DNA of 64,000 bases from positions 9,624 to 73,623 of the forward strand of contig CBDDCL010000009.1 of NCBI GenBank assembly GCA_965226245.1. The letters are read 5' to 3'. Positions 20,553 through 36,479 of this stretch are shown here, piece after piece. Both the position numbers and the translations under genes were made by a program. The DNA comes from Bryobacterales bacterium (GTDB lineage Bacteria > Acidobacteriota > Terriglobia > Bryobacterales > UBA6623). Position 1 is the first letter of the stretch; each line of letters starts with the position of its first letter. Under the pieces are notes generated by a model. That model saw only the letters and a list, made by a program, of their open reading frames with translations, was not told the origin of the DNA and did not search any database.

Positions 20553-20747
20553 GTGATTCAAAAAAAGGAAGAGAACGGCGAGAAGTACGTCACGGCCACA
20601 ACCGAGGCTGAATTTCACGCTGCGTTGAACCGGGGGTTCGCGGTTGAGGTGACGCCGGAGCTCGCGGATGAAATCGGAGTACCGATGAATGAGGACGTGG
20701 GCACCGTGGCGGAGATCGACCAGGCGCGTTACGACCGTCACGACTAG
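20553..20747 (+). CDS. Small hypothetical protein
   Basis: GTG start after GGGAG RBS, in operon with ardC. Confidence 0.6.
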   Translation: MIQKKEENGEKYVTATTEAEFHAALNRGFAVEVTPELADEIGVPMNEDVGTVAEIDQARYDRHD

Positions 20748-20762
20748 GAATGGAGGCGCCCG

Positions 20763-21851
20763 ATGACTAAGAAATCCTTTTGGCGGCGCGGGGAAGACTA
20801 CGCGCAGAAAGTCTCCAGCGAAATCATTGACCAGATCAAGGCCGGAGTTGCGCCGTGGCAGAAGCCGTGGAAGCCGGGAGAACAGATCAGCGCCGAAAAC
20901 TTCTCAACCGGCCAGAAGTACAGCGGCGGCAACAGCCTTTACCTGATGAGCCGCGCGATCCGCGACGGACGGGGAGACAACCGTTGGGGAACCTACAACC
21001 AGATTCGGGAAGCGGGCGGGCAGGTCCGCAAGGGCGAGAAAGGGACGCAGGTTCTATTCTTCACGGATCGCAACAGCAGGGTTGCGAAGGACGAGAAAGG
21101 GCAGACGATGAAGAACAAGGAAGGCAAGACGATCTACGAAGAACAAAAGCGCGAGACGCCCATCTGTAAGCAGTACACGGTTTTTAACGTGGAGCAAGCC
21201 GAGGGCTTGGAATTGAAACCGCGAGAAGGCCAAGTACGGCCCGAATGGGACGCTCATCGAGACGCCGAGAAAGTGATCGCGGCCAGCGGGCCGACCGTCG
21301 AGCACGTCGCCGGAGATCGCGCCTACTATCGCATGGCCGAGGACAAGGTAGTGCTCCCGGAGCCGTCCCAATTCCCCACCCGCAACGGCTACTACCAGAC
21401 GGCGCTTCACGAGTGCGGCCATGCAACCGGCCACCCGGATCGCATGAACCGCGAAACGCTCAAAGAGGGATTAGCCAACGGCTTTGGATCGCCGGAATAC
21501 GCCCGCGAAGAATTGCGGGCCGAGATCAGCGCCATGATGACCGGGGAGCGCGTGGGCGTGGGACATGACCCGCAGCGCGGCGCGGCCTATGTCGAGAACT
21601 GGGTGAAGGTGCTTGAAAAAGACCCGCATGAGATTCATAGAGCGGCGCGAGACGCGCAGAAGATGACCGATCACCTCATGGATCGCGCCATCGACCGCGA
21701 GGTTGCCAAGCCGAGCAAGGAAAAGACGCGGGCCGAGTTGACCCAGGAATACTCTCATGCTCGCGGGCCGCGGATCAGCCAGACGCCAAAACAATCGCCG
21801 GAAAAACAACCCGCTCAAGCCCAACAGCACGACGCAGGGCCGAGCCGTTAA
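20763..21851 (+). CDS. ardC: ArdC-like antirestriction/ssDNA-binding protein with zincin domain
   Basis: APWQKPW, Y.G.N, W.TY.Q, VRKGEKGT, VFNVEQ, HECGHATG, YAREELRAE. Confidence 0.9.
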   Translation: MTKKSFWRRGEDYAQKVSSEIIDQIKAGVAPWQKPWKPGEQISAENFSTGQKYSGGNSLYLMSRAIRDGRGDNRWGTYNQIREAGGQVRKGEKGTQVLFFTDRNSRVAKDEKGQTMKNKEGKTIYEEQKRETPICKQYTVFNVEQAEGLELKPREGQVRPEWDAHRDAEKVIAASGPTVEHVAGDRAYYRMAEDKVVLPEPSQFPTRNGYYQTALHECGHATGHPDRMNRETLKEGLANGFGSPEYAREELRAEISAMMTGERVGVGHDPQRGAAYVENWVKVLEKDPHEIHRAARDAQKMTDHLMDRAIDREVAKPSKEKTRAELTQEYSHARGPRISQTPKQSPEKQPAQAQQHDAGPSR

Positions 21852-21860
21852 GGAGCCACC

Positions 21861-22754
21861 GTGTTTGATCCGCGAGACTTTACCAGCGATCCCCGGACCC
21901 GGCCCGAAGCTCGCCCCAGGCGCGACCACGCGAAAGAGCGCGAGGACCGCGAGCGCGACGGCCACCGGCGCGAATACGATCCCCGCGGGACGAAGCGGCA
22001 GAGCTTCCAGGACCGCACGGATCGAGCGATAGCCGATGTGGGAATGTATCGCAACGTCGCCTACCGCGACCTGGCGGATGCTCACTTTGAGGGACACCCC
22101 TACGCGGCGCGGCGGGCCGTCGATCAGATGGTCCGGGCCGGTCACGTCCGGGAGCATAACGCCGAGGGACCGCAAGGCGGCAGCTACAAAGTGCTGACGC
22201 TCACCGAGCGCGGAGTGGAGCGGGCGGAGCGCGTAGCCCGCGACCAGGGGCTTGATTCCCAACAGAAGGCATGGAGCGGGCTTGTGAAGCCCGGCGAGCT
22301 TCAACATGACGTGGCTGTATTTCGCGCCGCGAGGATCGAGCAGATGAAGCTACTCGAACAAGGAGCCACTATCAAGCGCGTTCGGATTGACGCCGAACTC
22401 AAGCGCGAGGTCGCCAGCGCTACGGAAAGCGCGAGGGCGCGAGGCGGAAAGGAAGCGGCGGACGCCGCCCGCTTGGAAGCGGCGGACGCTCTAGGTCTCG
22501 CCGTCAAAGATTCTCGCGTGGAGTACCCCGACGCGCAGCTTGAATATCTGGATGTTGAAGGCCGCAGCGGGCGCGTCAATGTCGAGGTTGCGACCGAGCA
22601 TTACAGCGCCAAAAGTATCGCCGCGAAAGCCGCAGCCGGGTTTGCCATGCATGGCAGCAACGGGCGGGCGGCGGCGCGGATCGCCCGATCCCTCGGCCAA
22701 GACGAGGGCGGCGGCGGCGGCGGCTCACGAGATAAAGGGTCCATCGAACTCTAA
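21861..22754 (+). CDS. Winged-helix + PD-(D/E)xK-like protein; candidate Replic_Relax/MOBC-type relaxase
   Basis: LTLTERG, LQHDVAVF, YPDAQLEY..VNVEV....Y....I.AK. Confidence 0.55.
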   Translation: MFDPRDFTSDPRTRPEARPRRDHAKEREDRERDGHRREYDPRGTKRQSFQDRTDRAIADVGMYRNVAYRDLADAHFEGHPYAARRAVDQMVRAGHVREHNAEGPQGGSYKVLTLTERGVERAERVARDQGLDSQQKAWSGLVKPGELQHDVAVFRAARIEQMKLLEQGATIKRVRIDAELKREVASATESARARGGKEAADAARLEAADALGLAVKDSRVEYPDAQLEYLDVEGRSGRVNVEVATEHYSAKSIAAKAAAGFAMHGSNGRAAARIARSLGQDEGGGGGGSRDKGSIEL

Positions 22755-22769
22755 ACAGGAGATTCGCAA

Positions 22770-23114
22770 ATGCAGCCGTGGAAAATCAGTGTTGGCTTCA
22801 CGGTCATCATAATTGCCATCGCGGGAATGATTGGCGGAGAGCACTTCGCTTTTGTCGAACCTTATTTCCAAATCCTCGCCGTCGATTATGGGATGAGCCT
22901 AGCGTGGTATGGCGGAGCCGCCATCGTTTCCGTTATGGCTGTTATCTACGGTTCCGCCCGCGCTTTCGGCTTGGCGGACCTCGGCCTCAAGGTCGATCTG
23001 ATGGAGCGCTCTATTCGGCGCGGCGGCGGGAAGGGACACACCGAGCTTGCCGACAAGTTAGGACAAGAGGACCGGGGACAATTCCCCGGAGTAAGGACAA
23101 GGAGAGAGACATGA
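22770..23114 (+). CDS. Small two-TM protein at start of tra operon
   Basis: AGGAG RBS, two hydrophobic helices, stop overlaps virB2 start. Confidence 0.65.
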   Translation: MQPWKISVGFTVIIIAIAGMIGGEHFAFVEPYFQILAVDYGMSLAWYGGAAIVSVMAVIYGSARAFGLADLGLKVDLMERSIRRGGGKGHTELADKLGQEDRGQFPGVRTRRET

Positions 23115-23455
23115 AAAACAGACATTTGACCACTATATCTAGTGGTCGTTCAGCTGACAGAGGTACTACATATTGTAGGCGACACGGCGGGCGCGTCGTT
23201 CTTTTACTGAGCATCTTCGCGCTTTCAGCGGGAGACCTCATGGCGCAAGGCACGAGTCCATGGCTCGAAGCCATCACCGTGCTTCAGGACGCTTTCACCG
23301 GACCCATTGCGCGAGGACTGAGCTTGATTGCCGTTGTCGTGGGCGGGCTGATGTTTGCCTTCGGGGAAGGCGGCAGCAAGAAAGCCTTGGCCGGAATCAT
23401 CTTCGGCCTGGGAATGGCTATGGGCGCGGCCAACTTTCTTGATTGGCTCTTCTGA
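23111..23455 (+). CDS. virB2: VirB2/TrbC pilin
   Basis: SPW..A...L...FTGPIARGLSLIAVVVGGLMFAFGEG. Confidence 0.9.
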   Translation: MKNRHLTTISSGRSADRGTTYCRRHGGRVVLLLSIFALSAGDLMAQGTSPWLEAITVLQDAFTGPIARGLSLIAVVVGGLMFAFGEGGSKKALAGIIFGLGMAMGAANFLDWLF

Positions 23456-23751
23456 TGGAGCGCGGGAGAATATGGCGCGGATACCCGACGCTTTCCAAAC
23501 CGCTCACCATCATGGGCGTCGAGCGCCGTTGGTTCCTGTTGAGCGCTACGTTGGGAATGGCGCTTTGGAACGCCATCAACTCCCTTATGGCGGGCGCGTT
23601 TAGCTTTGGGGTGCTCTATGCAATCGGGTTTTGGGCTTGGAAGCAAGACCCCAACATGCTTGAAATCTTGCGGGCGTCCGCGCAGTTTCGCGCCCGCTAC
23701 GATCCCGGCAAGTGGGCGAAGGCACCTTGGACCCTTCTCATTCGGAGATAG
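23455..23751 (+). CDS. virB3: VirB3/TrbD
   Basis: L.KPLTIMGVERR, KQDP, YDPGK; lies between virB2 and virB4. Confidence 0.85.
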   Translation: MERGRIWRGYPTLSKPLTIMGVERRWFLLSATLGMALWNAINSLMAGAFSFGVLYAIGFWAWKQDPNMLEILRASAQFRARYDPGKWAKAPWTLLIRR

Positions 23752-23754
23752 CGC

Positions 23755-26178
23755 GTGAATATCAACAACGAACTTGCGGACTACGAAGCGGCGGGAGCGC
23801 TGGCTGACGAACTGCCATGGTGGGGCTGGCTCGAAGATGGCCGGTCCTGCTTGACGCGGGCCGGAGAGCTTATGTCGATCGCACGGCTCACGCCTAGCGT
23901 TCTGGACGGTCAGACACCCGAACAACTAGACCGTGTAGTGGACCGCTGGCAGCGCATGTTGAGCGGAGTCGATTCGCGGACCCGGCTGTACTTCTATTTA
24001 CTTCGCCGTCCAATCCAATTCGAGGACCACGACGAGGACAAGGGATCGAGCGTTGCCGCCCTTGGACGGCGCAAGCGGCGAGCGTTCCTTGAGAAACGAG
24101 TACAGAGCGTTAGCGCCTATGTCGCATGGGCGCATGATCCGGGCCTATCCGCCGTGACCACTCAAAAGACAGGCGGGCCGTGGTGGATGAGCTACGCGAA
24201 AAACTGGATGGCGCGGCGGCGCAATCAACATGAATCGGTTTATCTTGAATCCTCTATCCAAGAGGCGGCGGGGAGCTTCCGGCAACTGGTCGAAGCAAGC
24301 CGAGCGCTGGTCGATGACCTCACAGCGGTACGAGTGCTTGACGCGGCGCAAGGATCGCTCGTCTTGAACGAACTCATCAACCGGCCCGGTTCCTTTTGGG
24401 ACGGCGCGACCGGCAGCGGAATGAATTGGAGGCTGGCCGTCTCCGAACTCGAAGCGGAGCGGCGCAATCTTCGCCTAGACGGGGAGCCAGTGATTCTCTA
24501 CTCGCTTCTCTCGCCACCCGGAGCGGCCAAGGCGAATCTTCTACAGGCGCTTTACCGGCTCGATGCAACCATGACGGTCACTCTCGAATGGCGTCCGCAA
24601 AACCTCGATGCGGCCCGCCGTAAAATCCGGGGAGCGCAGCGCCATTACTTCTCGAAGCGCTACTCAATGTCCGCCGCTGTTCAAGAAACGGAAGGCACCG
24701 CGACGGCAATGGTGGACACGGCGGCGGAGGCGGAATCGGAGCGCCTAGGCGATGCCCTGGTCGAGTTGGAGACGGACGGAATCGCCTACGGCGATCTTGC
24801 CTTGACGGTGGCGCTCCATGGGCCGCTATCGCTCACCGAGAGCCTAGACGGAGATATCCGGCGCATCTTCACCAGCCACGACGCCAAGGTGATACGCGAG
24901 GGTTACGGGCAGCTTCCGGCGTGGTTTTCGCGGATGCCCGCGCAACCGCGACGGCGGCAATGCCGATCCGTGTTTTTATCGGCGGGCGCGGTTGCTTCCA
25001 TGGCTCCGATCTTCGGTCCTCCGGTGGGAACACCGCGCAGCGGTCACTTGAAGAAAGCGGCCCTGGCCGTGCTTGAAACCCAATGGAGAACCCCCTACTA
25101 CTACGATCTGTTCAAAGGAGACGTGGGACATACGCTGGTGCTTGGCGCGACCGGCGCGGGCAAATCCTTCACGCTCAACTTCCTTCTAGTTCAAGCGCTC
25201 CAATACGATCCGCGTATCCTCATTCTCGATCTAGGCGGCTCCTACCGCTGGCTGACCCAGTTTCTAGGCGGAGGCTACATGGAGCTATCGCCGGAAGGTG
25301 ACGCGGGCGGCGGCTTCCGTTTGCGGCCCTTCTCCCTTCCAGCGGGGGAGCGCACCTTTGGATTCCTTGCCGGGTGGATTGCGCGGCTGTTGCGAATCGG
25401 CGGCTGGAAACTCGGCGGGGAAGACCCTAGCGAGATTCGCGCCCGCGTCGAAGATATCTATGCCTTCGCACCCGCACGGCGGACCCTTGGAGTGCTGGTC
25501 CGTTCGCTTCCCTCAAAGATGTGGCCCGCTATGGGGCGCTGGCATGGCAACGGCGCATGGGGTCGATACTTCGATAACGCGGCGGACGGCGAAGACCTCA
25601 ACTTCGAGGACTGGCAAGTAATCGACATGGCGGGCGCGGCGGAGCATGAGGACTTGTGCGAAGCGGCGCTGTTCTACCTTCTGGAACGGTTGCGGCTGTC
25701 TTTGGAGAACCCCGACGAGACGGCCAGAGTAAAGCTAATGGTGGTCGATGAAGCGTGGCGCTACTTGCAAGACCCGGCGGTACTTTCCTATCTTGCCGAA
25801 GCCGCGAAGACATGGCGCAAGAAGAACGCGGCGCTCGTTATCGCCACACAAAGCGCCGTGGACGTGACCGGAACCGCGGGGGCGGAAGCCCTGCTTGAAT
25901 CCATGCCGACCAAGCTGTTTCTAGCCAACCCGGAGTTGCCGGACAAAGCCGCCGAAACCTTCCGGCTCAACCCTTCCGAAGTCAATACCATTCGAGGCTT
26001 GATCCCCAAGCGCGAGCTTTATCTACGCCGCACCGACGCGGCGGGTATCTTGCGGCTCGAAGTCGATCCGGCGAGCTACTGGCTTTACACCTCGTCGCCC
26101 GTCGATGCTCACAAGCGGGCCGAAGCAGTCCGCAAATACGGCCTCGTTGAGGCCATTGAACACTTATCTAGGAGGTAG
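23755..26178 (+). CDS. virB4: VirB4 ATPase
   Basis: VGHTLVLGATGAGKS, VVDEAW, KTWRKKN, ATQS. Confidence 0.95.
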   Translation: MNINNELADYEAAGALADELPWWGWLEDGRSCLTRAGELMSIARLTPSVLDGQTPEQLDRVVDRWQRMLSGVDSRTRLYFYLLRRPIQFEDHDEDKGSSVAALGRRKRRAFLEKRVQSVSAYVAWAHDPGLSAVTTQKTGGPWWMSYAKNWMARRRNQHESVYLESSIQEAAGSFRQLVEASRALVDDLTAVRVLDAAQGSLVLNELINRPGSFWDGATGSGMNWRLAVSELEAERRNLRLDGEPVILYSLLSPPGAAKANLLQALYRLDATMTVTLEWRPQNLDAARRKIRGAQRHYFSKRYSMSAAVQETEGTATAMVDTAAEAESERLGDALVELETDGIAYGDLALTVALHGPLSLTESLDGDIRRIFTSHDAKVIREGYGQLPAWFSRMPAQPRRRQCRSVFLSAGAVASMAPIFGPPVGTPRSGHLKKAALAVLETQWRTPYYYDLFKGDVGHTLVLGATGAGKSFTLNFLLVQALQYDPRILILDLGGSYRWLTQFLGGGYMELSPEGDAGGGFRLRPFSLPAGERTFGFLAGWIARLLRIGGWKLGGEDPSEIRARVEDIYAFAPARRTLGVLVRSLPSKMWPAMGRWHGNGAWGRYFDNAADGEDLNFEDWQVIDMAGAAEHEDLCEAALFYLLERLRLSLENPDETARVKLMVVDEAWRYLQDPAVLSYLAEAAKTWRKKNAALVIATQSAVDVTGTAGAEALLESMPTKLFLANPELPDKAAETFRLNPSEVNTIRGLIPKRELYLRRTDAAGILRLEVDPASYWLYTSSPVDAHKRAEAVRKYGLVEAIEHLSRR

Positions 26179-26181
26179 CTC

Positions 26182-27060
26182 ATGTTGAAAATCCTTACAC
26201 TCGTTACGGCGGCGCTCGTGGCGCTCACTATTCCGCTGGACGCTCAGGAGAGCGGGCCGCAGCGAGAAATCATCGAAGCCGAGGCGGACGGCGCGGTAAT
26301 TCACCGCGTCGGCGGGCAAGATAAGATTGTCAGAATCCGCGCCAAGACCCGCCACACTACCGTTATCGTGCTTCCCGCCACGGAAAACGTGCTGGATTTT
26401 GTGGTCGGAGATTCCGAATACTGGCACCTAACCGGAGCCGCGAATCTCGCGTTCCTCAAGCCCATTGCCGAGGGCGTCACTACCAACGTGGCGCTCGTTT
26501 GCGAGTCCGGGCGCATCTACTCATTCCTTGTCACCGAGCAAAGCAAGGGCCAGCCGCATCTTGTCGTCCGCATCGACCAAGAGGCCGAGGCAGACCCGCG
26601 AATCTCGCCGGGTAAACATGAACCGGCTTTTGTCGCTCGCGGGCGGGTTGTCGCCTATCAGCAAATGGCGGAGACGGCCATCGAGAGGGCTAGAGCAGCG
26701 CAGATCGAAGCAGACAGCCGCATTGCGGACGCGACGGCGCTTGCGGCGGGCGAGAGTGAATCGTTCCAAGCGGAGTATCCTACGCGGCTCAAGTTCCCTT
26801 ACCGGCTCGATGACAAGGCTATCAAGTGGCCGTTTTTAGTCGAGGGAATGTGGCACGACGGGAAATTTACCTACCTTCGCTCCAACGCCCAAGAGTCGCC
26901 CGCGCTGTACGAACACAAGGACGGGAAACCTTCACTCGTGGCCTACGATCTTGGCGAGGACGGGCTGTATATCGCCCGTCACGTTTTAGGTGACGGCTGG
27001 TTGCAAATCGGTAAAGAGAAAGCACGGTGGCGCTTCACCGTGCCGGAGATCGCGCCGTGA
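26182..27060 (+). CDS. virB9: VirB9/TrbG
   Basis: Signal peptide, VVGD.EYW, FLKP, TN......SGRIYSF, HDGKFTY, E.PALYE. Confidence 0.88.
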   Translation: MLKILTLVTAALVALTIPLDAQESGPQREIIEAEADGAVIHRVGGQDKIVRIRAKTRHTTVIVLPATENVLDFVVGDSEYWHLTGAANLAFLKPIAEGVTTNVALVCESGRIYSFLVTEQSKGQPHLVVRIDQEAEADPRISPGKHEPAFVARGRVVAYQQMAETAIERARAAQIEADSRIADATALAAGESESFQAEYPTRLKFPYRLDDKAIKWPFLVEGMWHDGKFTYLRSNAQESPALYEHKDGKPSLVAYDLGEDGLYIARHVLGDGWLQIGKEKARWRFTVPEIAP

Positions 27061-28406
27061 TCGAGTGGAAACGGCTCTACACGAAACCGGCAGGATCGCT
27101 ACCCGGTGGCGTCATCACTCAATGGGGTGTGGGAGTTCTCACTGTTGGGGTGTTGATGTTTCTCACCTACTGGATTTTGACGAACGGAGAGCTAGAGCAG
27201 CTTGCCGAAATAACCGAGCAGACCGCGACCGCGCCACGCAGCTATACCGATCAGATGGCATCGCGGGTGGATGAAGAAACCATGAGGGCCGACACCAAGC
27301 GGGCGGCGGCGGATCGAGACTTACTGACGCGACAACAACAGCAAGCCAATACCGCAGGAGTGCGGGCGGGCCAAGTCACCGCCCAAGAAGCCGCCGTACT
27401 TGCCGGGCCGAGTCCCGACACCGGGCAACCCTACACCGAGCAAGAATGGGATCTTCGGGAGCGCTTGCGCCTGGAAGCCGTCGAGCGGCGGAGCCGTTCA
27501 CTTCGCAGTTCACCTGTTGCACAGACCTACCGCAAACTGGACGGCGGCGGCGGGAGCGTGGCGGAGCGCACCGTGAACGATCCTATTGCAACCGCCAAAG
27601 CCGAAGGCGCGGCGGCGCTGCAAACGGCGCTGAGCACCATTGGAACCGTTACTAGCGGCCTCGAAGATCAGATTGCGGCGGAGGCGCAGGCGGATCAAGA
27701 CTTCATCGCGGCGCTTCGCGGTACGCCCGCCACGCCGGAAGACAGCCCGCTTATTGCCGCCGCGACTTCCGGCAGCTCCACGGCGCAAGACTACTCGGCT
27801 CCGGCGCGAGTCGAGACAGCCAAAGACCCGCCCGGTTGGGAGCGCATCTATGAAGGCTCATTTTTAGAAGCGGCGCTGGTAACACAGCTTTCCGGCGACT
27901 TTCCCGGCCCGGTGCTGGCCGTGGTTGCCTTGCCCTTCTACTCGGCAGACCGGCTACACGTCTTGATTCCGCGAGGGGCGCGGGTTATCGGTACGGCTCA
28001 GGCCGTGGGGAACCAAGATCAAACACGGCTGGCCGTAGGGTTTCACCGCTTGATCTTCCCTGATGGTCGTTGGGTTTCACTCCAATTTCGCGGCCTCAAT
28101 CAGCTTGGCGAGGGAGCCTTGAAGGATCAAGTGAACCGCCACTACTTTTCGATGTTCGCCGCAGTCGGAGCGGTAGGCGTCCTCAGCGGCCTCACGGCGG
28201 CGGGCGGCAATCCCTACGAAGGCGGAGGGGCGGGCATGAGGTCCGGGGCAGGGCAAGGACTCGGCCAAGCCGCTACGCGCATCCTAGATCGTTTCTTGAA
28301 TCGTATGCCCACAATCACAATTCGGGCTGGACACCGGCTCCGCGTTTGGCTCACGTCAGACGTGCTGGTACCCCGGCCCACGAAGACCAAAGGAGAGAGA
28401 AAATGA
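27057..28406 (+). CDS. virB10: VirB10/TrbI
   Basis: TM anchor; EG..LEA.L, GPV, LIP.G, RLIFPDG, D.VNRHY, PTITIRAG. Confidence 0.92.
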   Translation: MIEWKRLYTKPAGSLPGGVITQWGVGVLTVGVLMFLTYWILTNGELEQLAEITEQTATAPRSYTDQMASRVDEETMRADTKRAAADRDLLTRQQQQANTAGVRAGQVTAQEAAVLAGPSPDTGQPYTEQEWDLRERLRLEAVERRSRSLRSSPVAQTYRKLDGGGGSVAERTVNDPIATAKAEGAAALQTALSTIGTVTSGLEDQIAAEAQADQDFIAALRGTPATPEDSPLIAAATSGSSTAQDYSAPARVETAKDPPGWERIYEGSFLEAALVTQLSGDFPGPVLAVVALPFYSADRLHVLIPRGARVIGTAQAVGNQDQTRLAVGFHRLIFPDGRWVSLQFRGLNQLGEGALKDQVNRHYFSMFAAVGAVGVLSGLTAAGGNPYEGGGAGMRSGAGQGLGQAATRILDRFLNRMPTITIRAGHRLRVWLTSDVLVPRPTKTKGERK

Positions 28407-29299
28407 AACACCGAATCTTGACCGCAGTAGTTGTTATCCCACTGTTTATCACCCTGAGCACGACGCCCGCCTATGCCATCCTTGGCTCGATCCTAGCGGG
28501 TATCCAGCGGGCGCAAATGATTATCAATCAGGGCGTCCAAATCTACAACGACACCATGGAGAAGATCACGTTTGACGGGCAGTTGACCGAGATGATAGAT
28601 CAGGCGTCCCACCTGAAACAGCAAGCGCTTGGAACCGTGGGAGCGCTCACCGATCCCTTCACCACATTGGCATCCGCACCGACGCAGTTTATCGGACTCG
28701 GCTTGAGTTGGAAGAATGACTTTACCGGCATCGCCCAGGGCATTGCGTCCAACGTCGCGGACATGGGCGAGAGCGGCAAGAGCTTCCGCGAATCGTGGAA
28801 AGACCGGCTCACCGCCGCCGATACCGTGTCCGAGACGGACATTCTCAATCTGTTCCAGAACAGCAGCCCGGAGATCGCGGAGCGGGCTTCGCGTGGTTTT
28901 CTCACGGCGCGGGAGGAAGGCGACAAGCGCCTAGTGCTCGGTCACACGATGAGCGACACGGCCTCAAATCTCATGGTCGCGGCGAAGGACGCCGTAAAGT
29001 CGTACAAGGGCTTGCAGGACAACACCAACGTATCCAACACCGCACTAGCCCAATCGCAAATCGCCGGAACGGTGACGCAAGGCAACCTCACCGCTGCCAT
29101 GGCTCAGTTGATGGCATATTACGCGGCGAAGGACGCGGCGGAGACTTACGAAGCCGAGATCAACAGGCGCGCAGCACTGTCTAACCGGGTTGCCCGGAAC
29201 CAGCAAGCCGAGATCGTCTACGACGCGCATATCGCCGGGATCGTAGCTCAACGCCAAGCAGTCCGAGAAGGGATGCTCTTTCCTCTTCCCGGTCAATAA
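28403..29299 (+). CDS. Secreted helical protein, probable VirB5/TrbJ equivalent
   Basis: Signal peptide (PAYA), Gln/Ala-rich helices, position before virB6. Confidence 0.6.
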   Translation: MKHRILTAVVVIPLFITLSTTPAYAILGSILAGIQRAQMIINQGVQIYNDTMEKITFDGQLTEMIDQASHLKQQALGTVGALTDPFTTLASAPTQFIGLGLSWKNDFTGIAQGIASNVADMGESGKSFRESWKDRLTAADTVSETDILNLFQNSSPEIAERASRGFLTAREEGDKRLVLGHTMSDTASNLMVAAKDAVKSYKGLQDNTNVSNTALAQSQIAGTVTQGNLTAAMAQLMAYYAAKDAAETYEAEINRRAALSNRVARNQQAEIVYDAHIAGIVAQRQAVREGMLFPLPGQ

Positions 29300-29313
29300 T
29301 CCGGTGGTAGTTA

Positions 29314-30315
29314 ATGCAAATCCAACTCGATCCCGGCATCCCGACCAATCTCTCCGAAGAAGAACTGAGGAACTTCAAATCGTTCCTCGATATCGCCCTA
29401 GAATCACTCACGGCCTCGGCGGGCGCGGAGATATTCACCTTGGGAAATCAACTGCTCGGCGCTCTTGCCCTCATCGTCTTGGTTATGAGTGGATTGAAGA
29501 TCGCCTTTGGCGGCGGGTTCCAGCCGTGGGAAGTCATTCGCGTCATCATTGGCATTTGGATTCCATGGGTGATGTTGCAGTTCTACACGACCAACATTCC
29601 GGGCATGGTCCACGACTTCCCACACATGATCGCGGCGGGCGGCAACTGGCTTAACTTGCTACTCGTTGACGACTCTGTTTCCTCGGTTCAAGAAGAACTC
29701 ACCAACCTGTTTATGGAGCTTTCCAAGAATCAAGAAGCGGCGGTGGACTCAGGGGATATCATCGACATTTTGACCTCCGGCTTTCAAGCCGCGATGACGA
29801 CGGTTACAGGGTTTTTCATTGTCATCTTCATGGCGCTGATGATGCTCGTGCTCTCCGCTGTTGTCTACGCTCAAGTGATCTGGGCGCAGATCGCCCTTGC
29901 CATCCTCATCATTCTGGGTCCGGTCTTCATTCCGTTTCTCGTCTTCGATCCGCTGTCATTCCTGTTCTGGGGCTGGTTCCGGGCGATGATTACCTATTCG
30001 CTCTACGCCGTGATTGCCGGAGCCGTGTTGCGCGTATTCTCCGCCGTGGGAATCGCTTTCGTCACAAGCATGGGTAGTGCCGATCTCGATATCAATAGCC
30101 TCATGGACGTGGGTTTGTGGCTGCTCGCGGTCGTGCCTTTCTTTACCGCCGGAATACTGGCAAGCCTCAAGTGCGGGGAACTCGCTTCGATGCTCGTCAC
30201 CGGAGGCGGAGCGGGCGGGAGCGGACTCATGGGTATGGTGAGCACAGCGAGCATGGCGGTAGCCAGCGGAGGCACAGCGGCGGCGGCCAAGGCGGGCGCG
30301 GGAGGCGTCAAATGA
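29314..30315 (+). CDS. virB6: VirB6/TrbL
   Basis: Polytopic membrane protein, LGPVFIPF....PL.FLFWGW, Gly/Ala-rich tail. Confidence 0.9.
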   Translation: MQIQLDPGIPTNLSEEELRNFKSFLDIALESLTASAGAEIFTLGNQLLGALALIVLVMSGLKIAFGGGFQPWEVIRVIIGIWIPWVMLQFYTTNIPGMVHDFPHMIAAGGNWLNLLLVDDSVSSVQEELTNLFMELSKNQEAAVDSGDIIDILTSGFQAAMTTVTGFFIVIFMALMMLVLSAVVYAQVIWAQIALAILIILGPVFIPFLVFDPLSFLFWGWFRAMITYSLYAVIAGAVLRVFSAVGIAFVTSMGSADLDINSLMDVGLWLLAVVPFFTAGILASLKCGELASMLVTGGGAGGSGLMGMVSTASMAVASGGTAAAAKAGAGGVK

Positions 30316-30986
30316 AGAAGAAGCCCGAAATCAAAGACGCCGGAGCCGAGTACGCCGAGATATGGGGCGAGGCAATCCACAGCAACCGTCATCTACGGAT
30401 GACCTCCGCTGGACTCGCTATCGCAGTGCTGTTGCTCATCGTCGTTGTGTTCCGCATTGTCTCGGTCGAACCGCCGCGCCCCATCGTTGTGAGGGTTGAT
30501 GAAGTGGGACGGGCCGAGGCCGTGTCCTACGAAGCGATGGAGGCCCAGGCGGACCCGCTGGACCCCACCACCAAATATTTCCTCAACCGCTTTATCTATG
30601 ACTTCTACTCGCGGCGGCGGGCCACCGTTGCGGAGAACTGGTCTCGCAGCTTGCGGTTCCTCAGCACCGAACTTGCCAATGCCTCGTTCCGCGCCGAGAG
30701 TCAAAATGTCGCCCTTCTCGCGGCGGGCGGAGCGCGTGATGAATTGCAAGTCTCCCGCGTCATCTTGAGGATTCAACCCAACCCTCAGCAGCCGCACAGC
30801 GCCACGGCCGATTTTGACCTCGTGCGAATGGAGATGGCAAGAGAAGTGAGTCGGGAGCGCTGGACGCTCTCGCTTCAATTCCTATTCCTCGAAGAAATCC
30901 CCCCGGACTTGATCGTGTCCAACCCCATGGGAATCATCATCAACTACTTGCAAGGCGACCGCGCCACCGTCACCGGAGATCAATAG
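30312..30986 (+). CDS. virB8: VirB8/TrbF
   Basis: One TM, VVRVDEVG, YFL..F, NP.G..I motif. Confidence 0.88.
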   Translation: MKKKPEIKDAGAEYAEIWGEAIHSNRHLRMTSAGLAIAVLLLIVVVFRIVSVEPPRPIVVRVDEVGRAEAVSYEAMEAQADPLDPTTKYFLNRFIYDFYSRRRATVAENWSRSLRFLSTELANASFRAESQNVALLAAGGARDELQVSRVILRIQPNPQQPHSATADFDLVRMEMAREVSRERWTLSLQFLFLEEIPPDLIVSNPMGIIINYLQGDRATVTGDQ

Positions 30987-31928
30987 ATGATCGCGCACTT
31001 GCGGGGAAGAGATCGCAAGCTGGAAACTCTCGGCTGGACCGGCCAGGACGCGGAATGGATCGCGCTGGTTTGCCTTCACAGTGGCGTCTTCACGCGGGCG
31101 CAGTTCTGTCACTACTTCGATGCAGATCGCAAGCGGGCGCTTCGCTTTGTCAAGACCTTGACCGAGCGGCGGCAGGCTGTTGAAACGGATGTGATTGCCT
31201 TTAACGGGGGAGGCAAGACATGCCGTATTTCGAGCCACACGATCTACCGGGCGCTAGGAGTTGAGAACATCCGTCACCGGCGAAAGGCCAGCAAGCCGGT
31301 CGTCATACGGCGGCTTTTGTCGCTGGATTTTGTGCTGGAACATCCGGGTATGAACTGGCTCCCCGCCGAGGCGGAGAAGGTCGAGTATTTTGAAAAGCTC
31401 GGCTTGTCGAAAAGGCTCATTCCGCGCCGCATTTACTACGGTACGGTCGGCAACCAGAAGCGCTACTTTGCCCTCAAACTGCCCCTTGCCGTGGACCCTG
31501 AAATCGTCACTTTTGTCTACATCGATCCGGGTCACCAGACGGCTCGGGAGTTGTACTCGTGGGGAGCCGCACATGGGCCGCTTTGGGAGGCGCTTCGCAA
31601 GAAGGGACGGCAGGTTCGGGTGATCGGAATTGCGGTTGAAAATGCCACCGTGGATCGGACGGCGCGGGTGCTTGAAACATGGGCGGCGGCGGATCCAGGG
31701 ACAAACCATGAAGGGCTGACGGCGAAGCAGGAGATCAAGGCGATAGACGAAGCGATGACCCGCAAGGACCGCGAATTTCTAGCCCGGTACGGAGGATTCT
31801 CCAAAGCTGCTAGACGGTCTGTGGAACTCCAACGCCGCCCGGAAACCAAGCTCACAGAAGGAGTCTCGATTGACGACTATTCGACATGGCGGGCCGTGCG
31901 CTTTGCGGATCGAGATGAGGTCGGCTGA
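30987..31928 (+). CDS. Hypothetical protein (N-terminal wHTH-like) between virB8 and coupling protein
   Basis: Abuts virB8 stop; V.LHSGVF.R.QF, IYRALG.ENIRHRR, RLLSLDFVL. Confidence 0.75.
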   Translation: MIAHLRGRDRKLETLGWTGQDAEWIALVCLHSGVFTRAQFCHYFDADRKRALRFVKTLTERRQAVETDVIAFNGGGKTCRISSHTIYRALGVENIRHRRKASKPVVIRRLLSLDFVLEHPGMNWLPAEAEKVEYFEKLGLSKRLIPRRIYYGTVGNQKRYFALKLPLAVDPEIVTFVYIDPGHQTARELYSWGAAHGPLWEALRKKGRQVRVIGIAVENATVDRTARVLETWAAADPGTNHEGLTAKQEIKAIDEAMTRKDREFLARYGGFSKAARRSVELQRRPETKLTEGVSIDDYSTWRAVRFADRDEVG

Positions 31929-31943
31929 AAGACAGGGGAAATC

Positions 31944-32154
31944 GGTGGTTTTTATTGCCACCAAAGGCCGCTGGTACCATGCCACGCGCTCAGAGGGGGG
32001 GGTGTGGCATGGGTTTTGGCTTTGGTGCACCACAGCCGTATTCGTCTATCTGACTCATTCCGCTGTGGTTAGCCAATTTGAAAAGGCCATCATGCGTCCC
32101 AAGGGCCGCATGATGGCTAGGACGAGAGCGACCCCCCCCCAAAAGTGGGGGGTC
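31944..32154. other. Hairpin-rich intergenic region, candidate oriT
   Basis: Inverted repeats at 31977-32012, 32029-32069, 32086-32117 and 32130-32154. Confidence 0.4.
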
Positions 32155-32265
32155 ATGCGGACACGGATAGACGGCATTTGTGGCATGCCTCTATCCGGTC
32201 CTATGACGGGTCGCTCTCGTCCTCATTTATCCCTGCGGGAAGGCTGAAAACAAGGAGACGAACCT

Positions 32266-34692
32266 ATGATGCCATGGCGCGAGATTGGCCCGTACTTGAG
32301 GGAGCTTTGGCAACGGCCCGCTGGCCCGATGAACTGGAAAAACCCGATCCGGGTTTTCGCCGTCGTGGGCTGGCTGGTCGTGCAAGGTTTCGTGCTGTTG
32401 GGGTGGGCCGGGTTTCGCGTGTTTCAAGGTTTCCTTCTGTTGGCGTGGGCCGGGTTTCGCGTCGGGCAATTCGTCGCAGGGCTTCCGCCGCTGCTACTCT
32501 TTTTCTTCGCCGCTGTGGGGTGGGCCGGATGGAGCTTTGTACACCGTCCCTTCCCGCCGCTTGACGAGCATCCGATCCTCGTTCTGGTGGAATACCACAC
32601 CCCTAATTTCTTCGATGCTCTGGTCGTCTGGTACTACGTTACGCCCTTCGCTGTCGTCATGCTGACCGGCTTTATTTCCGTCACCATCTGGAGGGTTTGG
32701 CTGGAAGGGCGGCGGAGCGATTTCGCATCCTTCGCCAAGCTCCCGCCGTGGCCGCTTGATCCCAAACAAAAGGCCCCGGCCATCGTCATCGGGGAGGTCC
32801 ATCACCCGGTCGAAGCGCGCGAGGTTTTCAATCCCTCATGGCTCACCATCCCGGAGCGCGGACTGTATACCGGCGTGGCGATCTTCGGAGCCGTGGGATC
32901 AGGGAAAACCTCGGCTTGCATGAACCCGTTTGCCCGCCAACTTCTCGGCTGGCAAGCGGGCAGTCAGCAGAAGCGGGCGGCGGCCCTCGTGCTAGAAGTC
33001 AAGGGAGATTTCTGTCACGACATCCGCCAAATTCTAGTCGAGGCGGGCCGTGGACAAGACTACATCGAGCTTGGCATGAACGCCCGCTCTCAATGGAATC
33101 CGCTCTCGGCTTGGTGGCTCGATTCGTACTCGCTGGCCTACACCGTTTCGAGCCTTCTCAATCAGCTATTCGGCAAGGGCAAAGAACCCTTTTGGCAGCA
33201 AGCCTATACCAATCTGGTCCGCTGGATCATCGAGCTTTACCGCGTGTTCCCGGATCGTTGGGTGACGTTGCAACAGGTCTACCGCTGCGCCATCGACCCG
33301 GAGCTATTCGCGGCCAAGATCGAGGAAGCCAAGAAGCTGAGCGATGACCTCAACACAGGAACCATTTTCATCAAGGAACACGTACTACAAGCCCAAAAGT
33401 TAAACCTTGCCGAATGGAACTGGGTCGATGCACCGGACATGAAGGATAACGTACAAGCCGTCTACACGCGCCCGCTCAAAGAGAAGCTAGACGAGCTCAA
33501 CATCCCGCATGAGATCGTTTGGGAACCCGGACCCGGCGAAGACACGAGAGAGCGCATGGAGGCCGTCAACCGCTGGTTTGTCCACGACTGGCAAAACCTA
33601 GACAACAAGATCAAGTCTTCGATTGTGGAGGGGGTTTCAGTGTTCCTTGCCATGTTCGATATGCCGGACGTGGCGAAGGTGTTTTGTCCCGTCGCGCCGC
33701 TTACCTCTGACGATCCTCAAGCCATCATCCTGCAAGCCGCGATCAAGCGAGCCAGGGCGGACAAGGACGCGAAGAAAGCCAAGCAGCCGGAGCCGGAAGC
33801 GGAGCCAGAGCCAGAGGCGCAACCGGAGCCGGAGGCCCAGGCGGAGCCAAAGCCAAAGGCCGCACCGTGGGAACTGGTGCAGCCCGTCATTACTGACAGC
33901 GACCAACCCACCGCCCCCGGCCCGCCGCATATCAAACCGACAGCCCCGATCACGCAGCACCTACCGCCGCTCTTTGAATTGATCGAGCAGGGCAAGGTGC
34001 TGGCCTTGAATATGCCCGCTGGTATCAACCCGGCGCTGTCCCGCGCCGTGGGCGTGATGCTCAAGAACGCTTGGCTACAGGCGCTTCTCATGCGACCGGC
34101 CAAGATGAAGGCGAACCCGGGCAGCTACTTCCGGCCCGCCGTCTTTATCTGTGACGAATATCAAGCCTTCGCTTCGGTGGGCGAGGAAGACCCATCAGGC
34201 GATGAAAAATCCTTTGCGCTGACCCGCCAATGCCGCTGCATCCCGATTGTCGCCACGCAATCTATTTCCTCGTTGCGGGCCGTGTTGGGAAGCTCGGAAG
34301 CGTGGCGCTCGCTGTTGCAGACACTCCGTACACGAATCTTCCTATCTCTCAGCGACGACGCCAGCGCCAAGATTGCGTCGGAGTTGTGCGGCCAGGTGGC
34401 GAAGATCAAGGAATCCTACACCATCAGCGAGACTTCTAAACGCTCGGAAGTCTCCCCGCTCTCAGGCCGGGCCGGAGGCGGAGGCGGGAGCATGGGCGCG
34501 ACCAAATCATTCCGGGAGCAGCGCGAGGCCGTGTTTCACCCGCGAGACTTCGCCTTGCTCTCGAACTGTCAAGCGATCTGTCTGCCCTATGACGGGGCGC
34601 AGTCGCTTGAGCCGCGCCGCGTTTACCTGAAACCACACTATCTACCAGCCGAACACTCCTATTGGAGAGCGAAGGAGGCGGGCCAAATATGA
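32266..34692 (+). CDS. virD4: Type IV coupling protein (VirD4/TraG-like)
   Basis: N-terminal TMs, GAVGSGKT, LEVKGDF, WNPL, CDEYQ, ATQS.SSL. Confidence 0.9.
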   Translation: MMPWREIGPYLRELWQRPAGPMNWKNPIRVFAVVGWLVVQGFVLLGWAGFRVFQGFLLLAWAGFRVGQFVAGLPPLLLFFFAAVGWAGWSFVHRPFPPLDEHPILVLVEYHTPNFFDALVVWYYVTPFAVVMLTGFISVTIWRVWLEGRRSDFASFAKLPPWPLDPKQKAPAIVIGEVHHPVEAREVFNPSWLTIPERGLYTGVAIFGAVGSGKTSACMNPFARQLLGWQAGSQQKRAAALVLEVKGDFCHDIRQILVEAGRGQDYIELGMNARSQWNPLSAWWLDSYSLAYTVSSLLNQLFGKGKEPFWQQAYTNLVRWIIELYRVFPDRWVTLQQVYRCAIDPELFAAKIEEAKKLSDDLNTGTIFIKEHVLQAQKLNLAEWNWVDAPDMKDNVQAVYTRPLKEKLDELNIPHEIVWEPGPGEDTRERMEAVNRWFVHDWQNLDNKIKSSIVEGVSVFLAMFDMPDVAKVFCPVAPLTSDDPQAIILQAAIKRARADKDAKKAKQPEPEAEPEPEAQPEPEAQAEPKPKAAPWELVQPVITDSDQPTAPGPPHIKPTAPITQHLPPLFELIEQGKVLALNMPAGINPALSRAVGVMLKNAWLQALLMRPAKMKANPGSYFRPAVFICDEYQAFASVGEEDPSGDEKSFALTRQCRCIPIVATQSISSLRAVLGSSEAWRSLLQTLRTRIFLSLSDDASAKIASELCGQVAKIKESYTISETSKRSEVSPLSGRAGGGGGSMGATKSFREQREAVFHPRDFALLSNCQAICLPYDGAQSLEPRRVYLKPHYLPAEHSYWRAKEAGQI

Positions 34693-35693
34693 GCACCGCG
34701 AGCGGACTGGAACATCTCAAACCGTTTCTACCGGGTTTGGAAAGCGCCCTGGAAGATTCCGAAGTGAGCGAGATTATGATTAACGGTCCCGGTAATGTAT
34801 GGGTCGAGCGGGCCGGACGGCTTGCCGTACACGCCGCGCCGGACCTGGACGAAGCGGCGCTGTTACGGGCCGCTATCCATATCGCCCGTCCTTTGGGACT
34901 GGACCCGTCAACCTCTCCCATTGTTGATGCCCGGCTCGATGACGGATCGCGGGTTGCTATCTGCGTTCCGCCCGCCAGTCCTCAAGTCGCTATCACCGTG
35001 CGGCGCTTTGGCAAGCGGGCGTTCTCGGCGGATGACCTCGTGAAGCAAGGCGCACTCCCCGAAAACGTGCGGGCCGAAGCAGAGCGGGTGTTGCGGTCCC
35101 GGCGCAACATCCTGGTTTCAGGCGGAACCGGATCGGGCAAGACCACGTTGCTCAATGCCCTCATTGAACTTCTCCCCGATGACGAGCGGATAGTTGCTAT
35201 CGAGGACACGCTGGAGCTTCGCATCGAGCGGTCCAATTGCGTCCGCTTCGAGGCTCGCGGTTTGCAGGAAGGAGCGGTCACGATCCGCGATTTAGTCCGC
35301 CACGCGCTACGTCACCGCCCGGATCACATCGTCGTGGGCGAGGTTCGCGGCGGAGAGGCGGCGGACCTGCTGCAAGCCCTCAACACCGGCCACGGCGGAT
35401 CACTGACGACCGTACACGCCAACAACGCCGAGAGCGCCCTATCCCGGATCGCCAGTTGTGCCATGCAGGGCGGCGGGTCGCTTCCATGGGAAGTCACCTG
35501 TAGAGGCGTAGTGGACGGAATCGCCATGGTGATTCACATGACGCGCCACGAGGGACGGCGATTCGTGGAGGAAGCCCTGTTCGTCCAGGGCTACGAAACT
35601 GCTGAAAACCGCTGGTTCGTTCATCCTGTTTGGCCACTGCCGAGGGATACAGACCCGCCGGGGGAGCCTTCTCAGGCCGGGCCGGGCTCGTGA
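34689..35693 (+). CDS. virB11: VirB11/TrbB secretion ATPase
   Basis: SEIMING, SGGTGSGKTT, IEDTLEL, RPD.IVVGEVRG, NTGH.GS.TTVHAN. Confidence 0.93.
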   Translation: MSTASGLEHLKPFLPGLESALEDSEVSEIMINGPGNVWVERAGRLAVHAAPDLDEAALLRAAIHIARPLGLDPSTSPIVDARLDDGSRVAICVPPASPQVAITVRRFGKRAFSADDLVKQGALPENVRAEAERVLRSRRNILVSGGTGSGKTTLLNALIELLPDDERIVAIEDTLELRIERSNCVRFEARGLQEGAVTIRDLVRHALRHRPDHIVVGEVRGGEAADLLQALNTGHGGSLTTVHANNAESALSRIASCAMQGGGSLPWEVTCRGVVDGIAMVIHMTRHEGRRFVEEALFVQGYETAENRWFVHPVWPLPRDTDPPGEPSQAGPGS

Positions 35694-35801
35694 GGCCGGT
35701 CCGCAAAACCTCGCCCTATAGGCCAAACAGTGACATTGGAATCAAGTTATAGTAACATTGTATACGACGTGATTCCAACGTTGTTTCGATATGGTAATCT
35801 C

Positions 35802-36479
35802 ATGATCCTCACTGTTGGCGGTATCAAAGGGGGCAGCGGCAAAACCACCGTCGCCACAAACCTCGCTTGCATTGCCGCAACTCAAAATGCCGACATCTTG
35901 CTCGTGGACGCCGACGACCAGGAAACCGCATCCGATTTTACTGCGGTCCGCAAGGAAGACTACCCGGACGCGCCCCGCTATACGTGCACCAAGCTCACCG
36001 GCAAGGCCGTCCGCACCGAAATCCTCGAACTGGCTCCAAAATACGACCACATCATCGTGGACACTGGCGGTCGTGACACGACCAGCCAGCGTGCTGCTTT
36101 GGCTGTTTCCCAACTTTTGCTTGTTCCCTTTGTTCCCCGCAGCTTCGATATCTGGACCCTAAACAAAGTCGCCATGCTCGTTGAAGAACTACGCTCCGTG
36201 AATCCCACGCTTGCCGCCTATGTATTTCTCAACCGGGCCGATCCGCAAAGGCAGGGACCCGAGAATACTGAAGCAGCCGACATGCTCGGCGAGATCGACG
36301 GGCTCACCTATCTCCATGCTCCACTCGGCAGCCGCAAGGCCTTCGGCCACGCCGCCGCCCAAGGCCTTGCCGTCACCGAACTCACCGGCCACAGCAACAA
36401 TCCCAAAGCCGCCGCCGAGATTATGATCTTGTTTCAACATTGTTTTACAGTTGATTCAACGTTACAAATTGCAAGGTAG
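35802..36479 (+). CDS. parA: ParA (type Ib) partition ATPase
   Basis: KGGSGKTT, VDADDQ, IVDTGG; no N-terminal HTH. Confidence 0.92.
   Translation: MILTVGGIKGGSGKTTVATNLACIAATQNADILLVDADDQETASDFTAVRKEDYPDAPRYTCTKLTGKAVRTEILELAPKYDHIIVDTGGRDTTSQRAALAVSQLLLVPFVPRSFDIWTLNKVAMLVEELRSVNPTLAAYVFLNRADPQRQGPENTEAADMLGEIDGLTYLHAPLGSRKAFGHAAAQGLAVTELTGHSNNPKAAAEIMILFQHCFTVDSTLQIAR

Follow-up and report, generated by a model that had tools for sequence, protein, structure and literature searches.

How does a conjugative element start the transfer of its DNA when its transfer module appears complete in everything but a relaxase? The question is raised by a stretch of 64,000 nucleotides (the window) from a Bryobacterales bacterium of the phylum Acidobacteriota (assembly GCA_965226245.1, contig CBDDCL010000009.1, positions 9,624 to 73,623; G000:C9:9624-73623 in our numbering), which carries on the plus strand, at window positions 20763-35693, a set of type IV secretion system (T4SS) genes with no HUH relaxase among them. 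The source contig, C9, is 77.9 kb long, and the assembly (G000) comprises 7.84 Mb in 15 contigs and is 95.4% complete. We consider it probable that a plasmid-type conjugative element has its transfer module here, and that two of the genes, orfA and orfB, which belong to no Pfam or NCBIfam family, encode a diverged pair of MOBC/Replic_Relax paralogues (PF13814) acting on the orfB-virD4 spacer as origin of transfer (oriT). That the pair and the spacer form a relaxosome and its oriT is, taken by itself, quite probable. The function of the element is read here from homology, motifs, gene order and the DNA site.

The preliminary description had reported an uninterrupted and tightly packed series virB2-3-4-9-10-(5)-6-8, virD4 and virB11 between flanks rich in insertion sequences (IS). 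The genes called from Pfam and NCBIfam profile matches, for which 51 open reading frames (ORFs) of the window were scanned, agree with that series (Table 1): all are intact, they abut or overlap, and the five transposase genes of the window lie outside the module. Homologues of VirB3, VirB4, VirB6, VirB8, VirB9, VirB10, VirB11 and VirD4, which belong to the content of type T mating-pair formation systems (MPF_T), occur at this one locus. VirB5 is assigned by position, the ORF in question (28403-29299) having no family match at E<=10. For VirB1 (lytic transglycosylase) and VirB7, no module ORF matched in the general Pfam scan, which included no dedicated search for either family. The start of VirB2 probably lies near 23108, because the small orf114 is kept on contig C1 and the overlapping N-terminal extension of the VirB2 frame is not: in a tblastn comparison, only residues 141-225 of the frame 22778-23455 are found there. 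PMC3548315 places an acidobacterial T4SS basal within MPF_T. The element seems to be one of a large group of related MPF_T-like conjugative elements that are found in Acidobacteriota and form a lineage as yet without a name.

Is this T4SS conjugative at all? If its role were protein secretion or the release or uptake of DNA, or if it were a relic in decay, no relaxase would be needed. The flanks are rich in IS, and a tblastn search of the genome with the module proteins finds, besides a second nearly full module on C1 and a partial one on C12, mostly fragments. We nevertheless hold this explanation to be very improbable, as the module genes of C9 are all intact and tightly coupled, ArdC, VirD4, RepA_C and ParA are the usual company of conjugative plasmids, and the neighbourhood is conserved, the same module being kept across many genera of the phylum.

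The lack of an HUH relaxase (MOBP, MOBQ, MOBF or MOBV), first remarked on for the module, extends well beyond it. Relaxase families have no match among the 51 ORFs of the window or the 18 ORFs of C9 outside it, and across the assembly no match at E<=0.01 was found for PF03432, PF08751, PF03389, PF07514, PF01076 and PF02486, nor for the accessory MobC family PF05713, all of which gave control matches in named genomes. Families MOBH and MOBT were likewise not found in window, contig or assembly. A canonical relaxase encoded outside the window, which would have spoken against a non-HUH relaxosome, was thus searched for in the rest of the contig and in the assembly and was not found. PF13814 itself has one above-threshold match in the assembly and five sub-threshold rows elsewhere, none of them at orfA or orfB. 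The above-threshold match is a bona fide Replic_Relax gene (C12:343-1425, PF13814 1.8e-14) that adjoins a TraG/TraD-like P-loop ATPase at the contig start, and the two (C12:343-2811) constitute a second, separate MOBC-type pair of the same genome. This gene shares with the module the layout of a nickase beside an ATPase. It differs in carrying the complete H, PD and ExD set and in lying outside a VirB operon, and pairwise BLASTP detects no similarity among its product, orfA and orfB.

What, then, could take the place of the relaxase? For orfA, the winged helix-turn-helix (wHTH)-like N-terminus and the HD, PD and E...K residues noticed in the preliminary description proved to be features of a whole protein family. 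In an alignment of 31 orfA-family sequences reaching down to 25% identity (A2), R64, G118, G140, H149, D150, G168, E179, A208, P223, D224, E242, Y248 and G260 are invariant. When full-length orfA is compared by hhalign with 21 aligned PF13814 proteins of Acidobacteriota (A3), in which H, PD and E-x-D are invariant or nearly so, the probability is 89% (E 2e-6, 193 columns), with H149, PD, E242 and the next K each in register with the corresponding H, PD, E and K of A3. Most of the catalytic signature H...PD...ExD...K is present in orfA; it is not in orfB. The AlphaFold2 (AF2) model of orfA, built from the 31-sequence alignment (predicted local distance difference test, pLDDT, 85.3; predicted TM score, pTM, 0.77; residues 1-45 and 281-297 disordered), has a wHTH at about 49-128 followed by an alpha/beta domain bearing H149-D150, E179, P223-D224, E242 and Y248. 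PF13814 is the commonest Pfam family within the orfA family (3 of 31 members at E<=1, the best at 1.2e-4, below threshold), and among its language-model neighbours the nearest atlas cluster that carries any Pfam family is 50% PF13814 (score 0.89).

For orfB, the likeness to Replic_Relax is one of fold. Its AF2 model (pLDDT 90.2, pTM 0.81) consists of a wHTH at about 9-92 and a C-terminal alpha/beta domain, and the predicted helix-strands-helix-strand order of the C-terminal domains of both proteins suits a PD-(D/E)XK core. The best match of the orfB model in BFVD, over the full length, is gp146 of Bacillus phage G (E 1e-4, probability 1.00, TM 0.47/0.53, 270 columns), which is annotated as a homologue of SPO1 gp27.3, scores 89 bits with PF13814 and falls in PHROGs under 'replication initiation by nicking'. 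Full-length orfB aligns with A3 at 45% (hhalign, E 2.3e-4), a control comparison of orfA with orfB gives 7% in the wHTH only, and the N-terminal halves alone reach 96% (orfA) and 46% (orfB) against A3. Within an alignment of 33 orfB-family sequences (A1), the near-invariant polar residues are D114, K131, R148, R159, D180 and H196. By its modelled fold, orfB appears to be a Replic_Relax member with an active site that would have been lost or re-wired, because PD is absent, Y178 stands at the position of E and only D180 is kept.

Both proteins belong to large families without a Pfam or NCBIfam model. Neither matches Pfam (E<=0.01), NCBIfam (E<=0.1) or PHROGs (E<=0.01), where orfA has a single chance-level row (phrog_436, E 0.062) and five relatives searched at the same threshold have none. 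No name or Pfam domain occurs among the 120 best matches listed for orfA or the 120 listed for orfB, and the 30 nearest atlas clusters of orfB are all 'hypothetical protein'. The nearest atlas clusters of both are from Acidobacteriota. The orfA family comprises 906 clusters at 90% identity, and that of orfB 2842 at 90% and 1833 at 50% identity (E<=0.001). Searched by tblastn against 72,556 PLSDB plasmids, orfA and orfB have no match; the best PLSDB relative of VirD4 has 29% identity, and the plasmid context is uninformative. A literature search of titles and abstract openings retrieved no publication describing the acidobacterial orfA/orfB pair.

The DNA on which such a pair could act is the 337-bp spacer between orfB and virD4. 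The preliminary description had pointed to a gene abutting virB8 beside a hairpin cluster and virD4, and this arrangement is borne out: the ATG of orfB follows the VirB8 stop codon immediately, and the spacer leads to VirD4. It contains 18 inverted-repeat pairs, including a perfect one of 16 bp, and its single-stranded fold has an energy of -91.9 kcal/mol versus -53.8 +/- 3.4 for 100 shuffles (z = -11.2), none of which equals it. We aligned the spacers of 20 elements (A4), nine copies from G000 and eleven elements of other genomes with 39-83% orfB identity; four loci in which the 3' motif is missing were left out, as was every locus with less than 37% orfB identity. All 20 keep a 13-bp stem, GACGNNAGCGACC / GGTCGCTNNCGTC, and compensatory changes occur at three of its pairs and at one pair of a small 3' hairpin (AU 10, UA 6 and GC 4 at one pair; GC 15 and UA 5 at another; one double change at each of two more). 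The stem core AGCGACC/GGTCGCT is invariant and persists in distant relatives, one of which has a perfect repeat of 23 bp and another of 16 bp. The motif ATCCCTGCGGGAAGG, 8-12 nt 3' of the stem, is nearly invariant down to about 40% orfB identity and is recognisable further out as TCCCTG or TCTGCGGGA. The ATCCCTGCGGGAAGG/ATCCCTGC block may resemble ATCCTG, the nick-region core of MOBP origins (RP4, T-DNA border), yet no MOBP relaxase is found in the genome.

The association of this repeat with orfB is directional. A loose pattern, AGCGAC-N15-140-GTCGCT, was counted at the 30 best-per-genome orfB loci: it lies downstream of orfB at 23 (45.8 kb in total, orfB identity down to 27%) and upstream of or inside orfB at two (65 kb in total). 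Over the 7.84 Mb of the genome the pattern has 138 matches, a background of about one per 57 kb. At 19 of the 30 loci, VirD4 is detected downstream of orfB. A coupling protein and oriT-like repeats are linked at the present locus too, in the order orfB-inverted repeat-VirD4. On C15, more than 10 chromosomal matches to the loose pattern share a span of 66-67 nt (e.g., 1192261-1192327, 1442045-1442111 and 3024837-3024903), which suggests a dispersed hairpin repeat family unrelated to T4SS.

Gene order across the phylum argues further for two components. In an even sample of 401 genomes, for which five candidates per genome were scored, so that some copies were missed, and second fragments of the same gene were dropped (58 of 69 rows kept for orfA, 78 of 95 for orfB), orfA occurs in 37 genomes and orfB in 47. 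Both occur in 35, and orfA alone in two (one with fragments, one at E 5e-4). At 26 of the 58 orfA places, orfB follows on the same strand within 300 bp; at one it follows at 308 bp and at 17, in a window-like arrangement, at 8-11.4 kb, which makes 18 of 58 at 0.3-11.4 kb. Eight places have another arrangement and six no orfB on the same contig and strand, the latter including G000:C1, where tblastn puts orfB 8.3 kb downstream. Three distant relatives that we annotated read VirB3/4-VirB9-VirB10-...-VirB8-small ORF-orfA-orfB-spacer, one of them with methylase and SSB genes between VirB8 and orfA. Two continue with a small ribbon-helix-helix (RHH)-like ORF, VirD4 and VirB11; the third is without VirD4 and VirB11 by Pfam. 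From the order orfA-orfB-spacer-VirD4 in these relatives, the two genes appear to have been paired in the ancestral layout, immediately ahead of the spacer and the coupling-protein gene. In the lineage of the window, orfA would have been relocated to the head of the operon beside ArdC, so that T4SS genes now separate it from orfB. The notion of an MPF_T-like lineage with a non-HUH or two-component relaxosome, put forward from the letters of the window, gains support from the failure to find an HUH protein, the orfA motifs, the orfB fold, the linked hairpins and this gene order.

Several observations weigh against an orfA/orfB relaxosome, and most concern the nuclease domain. By profile, neither protein matches PF13814 even at E<=10. 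The C-terminal part of orfA alone gives 0.2% against A3, a non-significant alignment of 28 columns around the H motif, and that of orfB alone 24% (E 8.5e-4); much of the full-length Replic_Relax signal therefore comes from the wHTH. Homology of the orfA nuclease domain is, as far as its sequence goes, not established by profile alone. A helical insert of about 35 residues (177-210), which separates the first strand from PD, may disrupt the alignment locally, and the second acidic residue of ExD is replaced. In orfB, PD has no counterpart in the alignment with A3, Y178 takes the place of E and only D180 corresponds to the D of ExD. When both models were searched against the PDB (Foldseek, VIA), wHTH regulators filled the match lists, which therefore speak neither for nor against a PD-(D/E)XK core. 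As for the remaining tests of the similarity, none of the 33 orfB-family members has PF13814 at E<=1, gp146 taken as a single sequence gives a non-significant 0.2-0.3% with A1 or A2 in hhalign, phmmer of orfA and orfB against PDB sequences yields nothing below E 0.5, and no solved MOBC structure is among the PDB matches. Weak nuclease rows for orfB in the PDB (1xmx, E 0.041; R.BspD6I small subunit, 0.068; the Cas4-family ACE1, 0.10; FokI, 0.20) were too weak to use. A predicted complex of orfA (residues 45-280) with orfB scored 0.00 and was not used either way.

In another reading, orfA and orfB act as wHTH regulators or in maintenance, the spacer serves virD4-virB11 as a control element at the level of transcription or RNA or as a single-strand replication signal, and the true relaxase is unrecognised or mobilisation occurs in trans. 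The significant matches among solved structures are indeed with MarR/PadR-type regulators only: the best VIA match is a MarR-type chain both for orfA (Z 9.8, rmsd 5.0, 97 aligned) and for orfB (Z 7.8, rmsd 3.7, 83 aligned), in each case over the wHTH, and C-terminal nuclease homology is non-significant by profile alone. The spacer also lies within the virD4 5' leader, a terminator-like stem followed by a T-rich tail closes it, and pieces of the stretch occur in metatranscriptome libraries, where unitig-sized pieces at least 90% alike span 30 of 30 bins in two libraries, as in two other sponge-type runs; this is not proof of transcription, since contigs reveal neither transcription nor ends or nicks. 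Against plain repressors speak the invariant H, PD and E of orfA, unexpected in such proteins, and the match of orfB to a PF13814 protein (gp146), which covers the full length and not the wHTH alone. Moreover, a stem core invariant across 27-100% protein identity and accompanied by compensatory changes is usual for DNA hairpins that a protein recognises, the spacer has no match in Rfam (no family at E<=1 across 19900-37300), and module, contig and genome offer no other candidate relaxase for the element. We judge this explanation quite unlikely.

More serious is the alternative of a relaxase consisting of orfB alone, which would derive from Replic_Relax and have a re-wired site made up of D114, D180, H196 and R/K residues, orfA being an auxiliary or an unrelated nuclease engaged, for instance, in anti-defence or establishment with ArdC. 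It is orfB that sits beside the conserved repeat (23 of 30 loci) and usually adjoins VirD4 (19 of 30), and the orfA of the window adjoins ArdC, away from the repeat. (On C1, too, an ArdC paralogue is the neighbour of the orfA paralogue, by tblastn.) The orfB family is about three times commoner than that of orfA (2842 versus 906 clusters at 90% identity). In the genome itself, orfB has eight full or near-full copies (C9, C6, C8, C12, C15, C2, C14 and C1) plus fragments, and orfA two full copies (C9 and C1) plus a fragment on C13. Those of orfB lie between VirB8 and VirD4 on C9, C12 and C1, and likewise on C6 and C15, where VirB8 is truncated; on C8 and C2 VirD4 is the only such neighbour, and the near-full copy on C14 has neither. 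Furthermore, 12 of the 47 orfB genomes lack orfA, and one of the sampled genomes (G088), in which orfA was not found with the window query, holds an island (G088:C1:4019000-4038999, 9172-19650) consisting of a tyrosine integrase, orfB, the repeat at 176 bp and cargo, with no coupling protein. Its cargo comprises type I restriction-modification genes, an ImmA/IrrE-like peptidase and DUF4411. From its gene content it looks like a mobilisable (defence) island with orfB as its only transfer gene; the integrase-orfB-repeat-cargo arrangement is typical of mobilisable islands, and an island of this kind without orfA or a coupling protein fits orfB alone better than an obligate pair. We keep this alternative as a serious one mainly because of that island. 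It is still rather unlikely: the PD and E residues by which the catalytic site of the family is defined are missing from orfB, Y178, at the E position, is not invariant in A1, and orfA keeps an invariant nuclease-like signature. An unrelated function of orfA would also be hard to reconcile with its position directly upstream of orfB in 26 of 58 places and with the presence of orfB in 35 of 37 orfA genomes.

If pair and spacer do form the relaxosome and oriT, which protein cuts? Under that premise orfA is the somewhat favoured cutter, orfB as cutter appears doubtful, and a need of both for catalysis is unlikely. A fuller scheme, which we advance tentatively and hold to be less likely than not, divides the relaxase in two, with orfB (re-wired or dead) in charge of origin recognition, element specificity and VirD4 docking, and orfA of cleavage. 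In the mechanism proposed with the main reading, the winged helix of orfB would bind the spacer, reading both element-specific repeated words and the invariant AGCGACC/GGTCGCT inverted repeat, and orfB would hand over first the site and then the processed DNA to VirD4 next to it. With its H, PD, E and K kept, orfA would supply metal-dependent strand cleavage, probably near the conserved ATCCCTGC block 3' of the repeat. The strand would then leave through the MPF_T-like VirB2-11 channel and be protected in the recipient by ArdC. One difficulty is shared with the known family: MOBC relaxases are reported to leave no covalent intermediate (PMC12857230), which makes the piloting of the strand a problem for them too.

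Some support for element-specific recognition comes from the left half of the spacer, where the arms of the two nested inverted repeats carry one and the same word of 5-6 nt, which varies among elements: GCCAC on C9, C6 and C2, GGTAC on C12, GTTAC on C8, GTGAC on C15, GGAAC on C1 and in G385, and GTTCC in G393. In a set of ten close paralogues and orthologues, the N-terminal 43 residues of orfB are nearly fixed (mean column entropy 0.32), the wHTH having variable patches at 45-52, the start of the recognition helix (entropy 1.29), and at 63-71, the wing (1.48); variability peaks in windows of the C-terminal third (1.7). C9 and C6 agree both in the word GCCAC and in orfB residues 45-53. Two pairs, G385/C1 and G309/G250, run counter to this, with the same word and different recognition-helix residues, and the apparent co-variation of recognition residues with the spacer word is suggestive only.

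Three groups of known systems invite comparison. To our knowledge, MOBC is the least understood relaxase family. Its members (TraX of Enterococcus faecalis pAD1, MobC of CloDF13; PF13814) resemble the present proteins in combining an N-terminal wHTH with a restriction-endonuclease-like domain, which in orfA and orfB is putative, and orfA in the register of H, PD, E and K. According to PMC5357655, PF13814 relaxases are recognised by CONJscan as MobC and paired with VirD4, and the gene adjoins a VirD4-type coupling protein in PF13814/MobC elements as it does here; a further likeness (PMC12857230) is an oriT with repeats and a binding site that is possibly separate from the nick site. The differences are that orfA and orfB fall below the PF13814 threshold, that two paralogues are present here instead of one protein, that orfB is without PD and E and orfA has the 177-210 insert and is without the D of ExD, and that the host is an acidobacterium with an MPF_T-like channel. 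Second, the relaxases of phage 'DNA translocation operons' (0305phi8-36 orf200, SPO1 gp27.3 and phage G gp146) include the best structural match of orfB. According to PMC3357382, the relaxase-like gene of 0305phi8-36 adjoins a VirD4-like gene, and HHpred ties this phage family to CloDF13 MobC, also with the C-terminal domain alone. Sequence identity with these proteins is only about 10%, and they are single genes with no T4SS channel. Finally, classical relaxosomes (TraI/TraJ of RP4, TrwC/TrwA of R388, NikB/NikA of R64) divide oriT-binding specificity factor and nickase as is proposed here, and share the inverted repeat with a conserved block a few bases later and small RHH-type proteins nearby. 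In contrast to them, no HUH protein is found here, and a single nuclease family would have supplied the two partners as paralogues.

By the Pfam relaxase profiles tested, elements of this kind would score as relaxase-less (MOBless), and gene flow in Acidobacteriota, a dominant soil phylum, is therefore probably underestimated. Profiles derived from A1 and A2 could extend relaxase typing tools. Should the division of labour between orfB and orfA prove true, a heteromeric, non-HUH conjugation initiator would serve thousands of elements in Acidobacteriota and neighbouring phyla, with specificity words diversifying among co-resident elements and so avoiding cross-talk. A two-paralogue, MOBC-like version with a sharply defined, covarying DNA site would moreover be a concrete system in which to study how a restriction-endonuclease-like enzyme starts and pilots transfer, and the two proteins with their folded, conserved site make a poorly known route of conjugation initiation directly testable.

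Table 1. Features of the transfer module and its surroundings (window positions).
Feature	Position	Strand	Basis or remark
RepA_C plasmid replication initiator	18989-19966	-	PF04796 1.6e-31; upstream of the module
ArdC-like protein	20763-21851	+	ssDNA-binding ArdcN domain (PF08401 7.8e-35) and zincin metallopeptidase (PF18818 3.7e-38); first module gene
orfA	21861-22754	+	No Pfam/NCBIfam family; candidate MOBC/Replic_Relax-like nickase
orf114	22770-23114	+	Encodes a small protein predicted to have two membrane helices; lies between orfA and virB2; 45% identity to the copy in the same place on C1
VirB2/TrbC pilin	frame 22778-23455, inferred start ~23108	+	PF04956 8.3e-15 on residues 139-224 of the frame
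VirB3	23443-23751	+	Pfam 7e-8
VirB4	23755-26178	+	TIGR00929 2.2e-75, below the cut-off of that model
VirB9	26182-27060	+	CagX 6.3e-25
VirB10	27027-28406	+	TrbI 3.1e-39
VirB5-like ORF	28403-29299	+	Position and signal-peptide-like N-terminus only
VirB6	29314-30315	+	TrbL 4.7e-16
VirB8	30117-30986	+	2.5e-15
orfB	30987-31928	+	No Pfam/NCBIfam family; candidate oriT-recognition subunit or re-wired relaxase
Structured spacer, candidate oriT	31929-32265	+	Between orfB and virD4
Spacer, left half	31959-32027		Nested inverted repeats around a G8 loop
Spacer, middle	32086-32117		Conserved block and hairpin
Spacer, right	32119-32134 / 32208-32223		16-bp perfect inverted repeat enclosing two hairpins
Spacer, conserved ATCCCTGCGGGAAGG	~32232-32246		Followed by the virD4 ribosome-binding site
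VirD4-type coupling protein	32266-34692	+	808 aa; TrwB_AAD_bind PF10412 1e-10, TraG-D_C PF12696 2.3e-8
VirB11 ATPase	34662-35693	+	T2SSE PF00437 2.7e-49; TIGR02788 4e-66
ParA ATPase and two small RHH-like proteins	35730-37057	+	NF041546 2.3e-42; RHH_1 0.0064 for 36767-37057
Transposase genes	16623-18068, 42110-43226, 44896-46341, 51636-52805, 59321-60652		All outside the module

Downstream of the module, ParA and the two small RHH-like proteins are candidates for a partition system and/or a relaxosome accessory; ParA and the first small ORF recur jointly on contig C10 (tblastn). The VirD4 protein contains an acidic, proline-rich repeat insert at residues ~501-534 (weak Trypan_PARP match). RepA_C-type tblastn hits, some of them fragmentary, occur on all 14 of the small contigs C1-C14 (24-117 kb), one of which has four, and many of these contigs carry pieces of the module T4SS; either a swarm of related plasmids or a single replicon set broken up by IS could account for this. 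Sponge-type metagenomes of several studies abound in pieces of window positions 30987-33000, some near-identical and others 90-99% similar, as unitigs of ~100-400 nt, a fragmentation that is expected for a multi-copy, diversified family.

Elsewhere in the window, a Thoeris-type defence pair lies at 2229-3658 on the minus strand (ThsA Macro domain 2.2e-45, ThsB TIR 1e-21), and positions 12111-16420 hold the genes of a 951-aa MmeI-like type IIL restriction-modification enzyme and, after it on the opposite strand, of an Abi_C abortive-infection protein. An 802-aa Sll1717-family P-loop ATPase (37174-39582, plus strand; NF047389 2.4e-91), the N-terminus of which is weakly nucleoside 2-deoxyribosyltransferase-like, and a separate deoxyribosyltransferase-like gene (9184-9987, minus strand) are probably defence-related as well.

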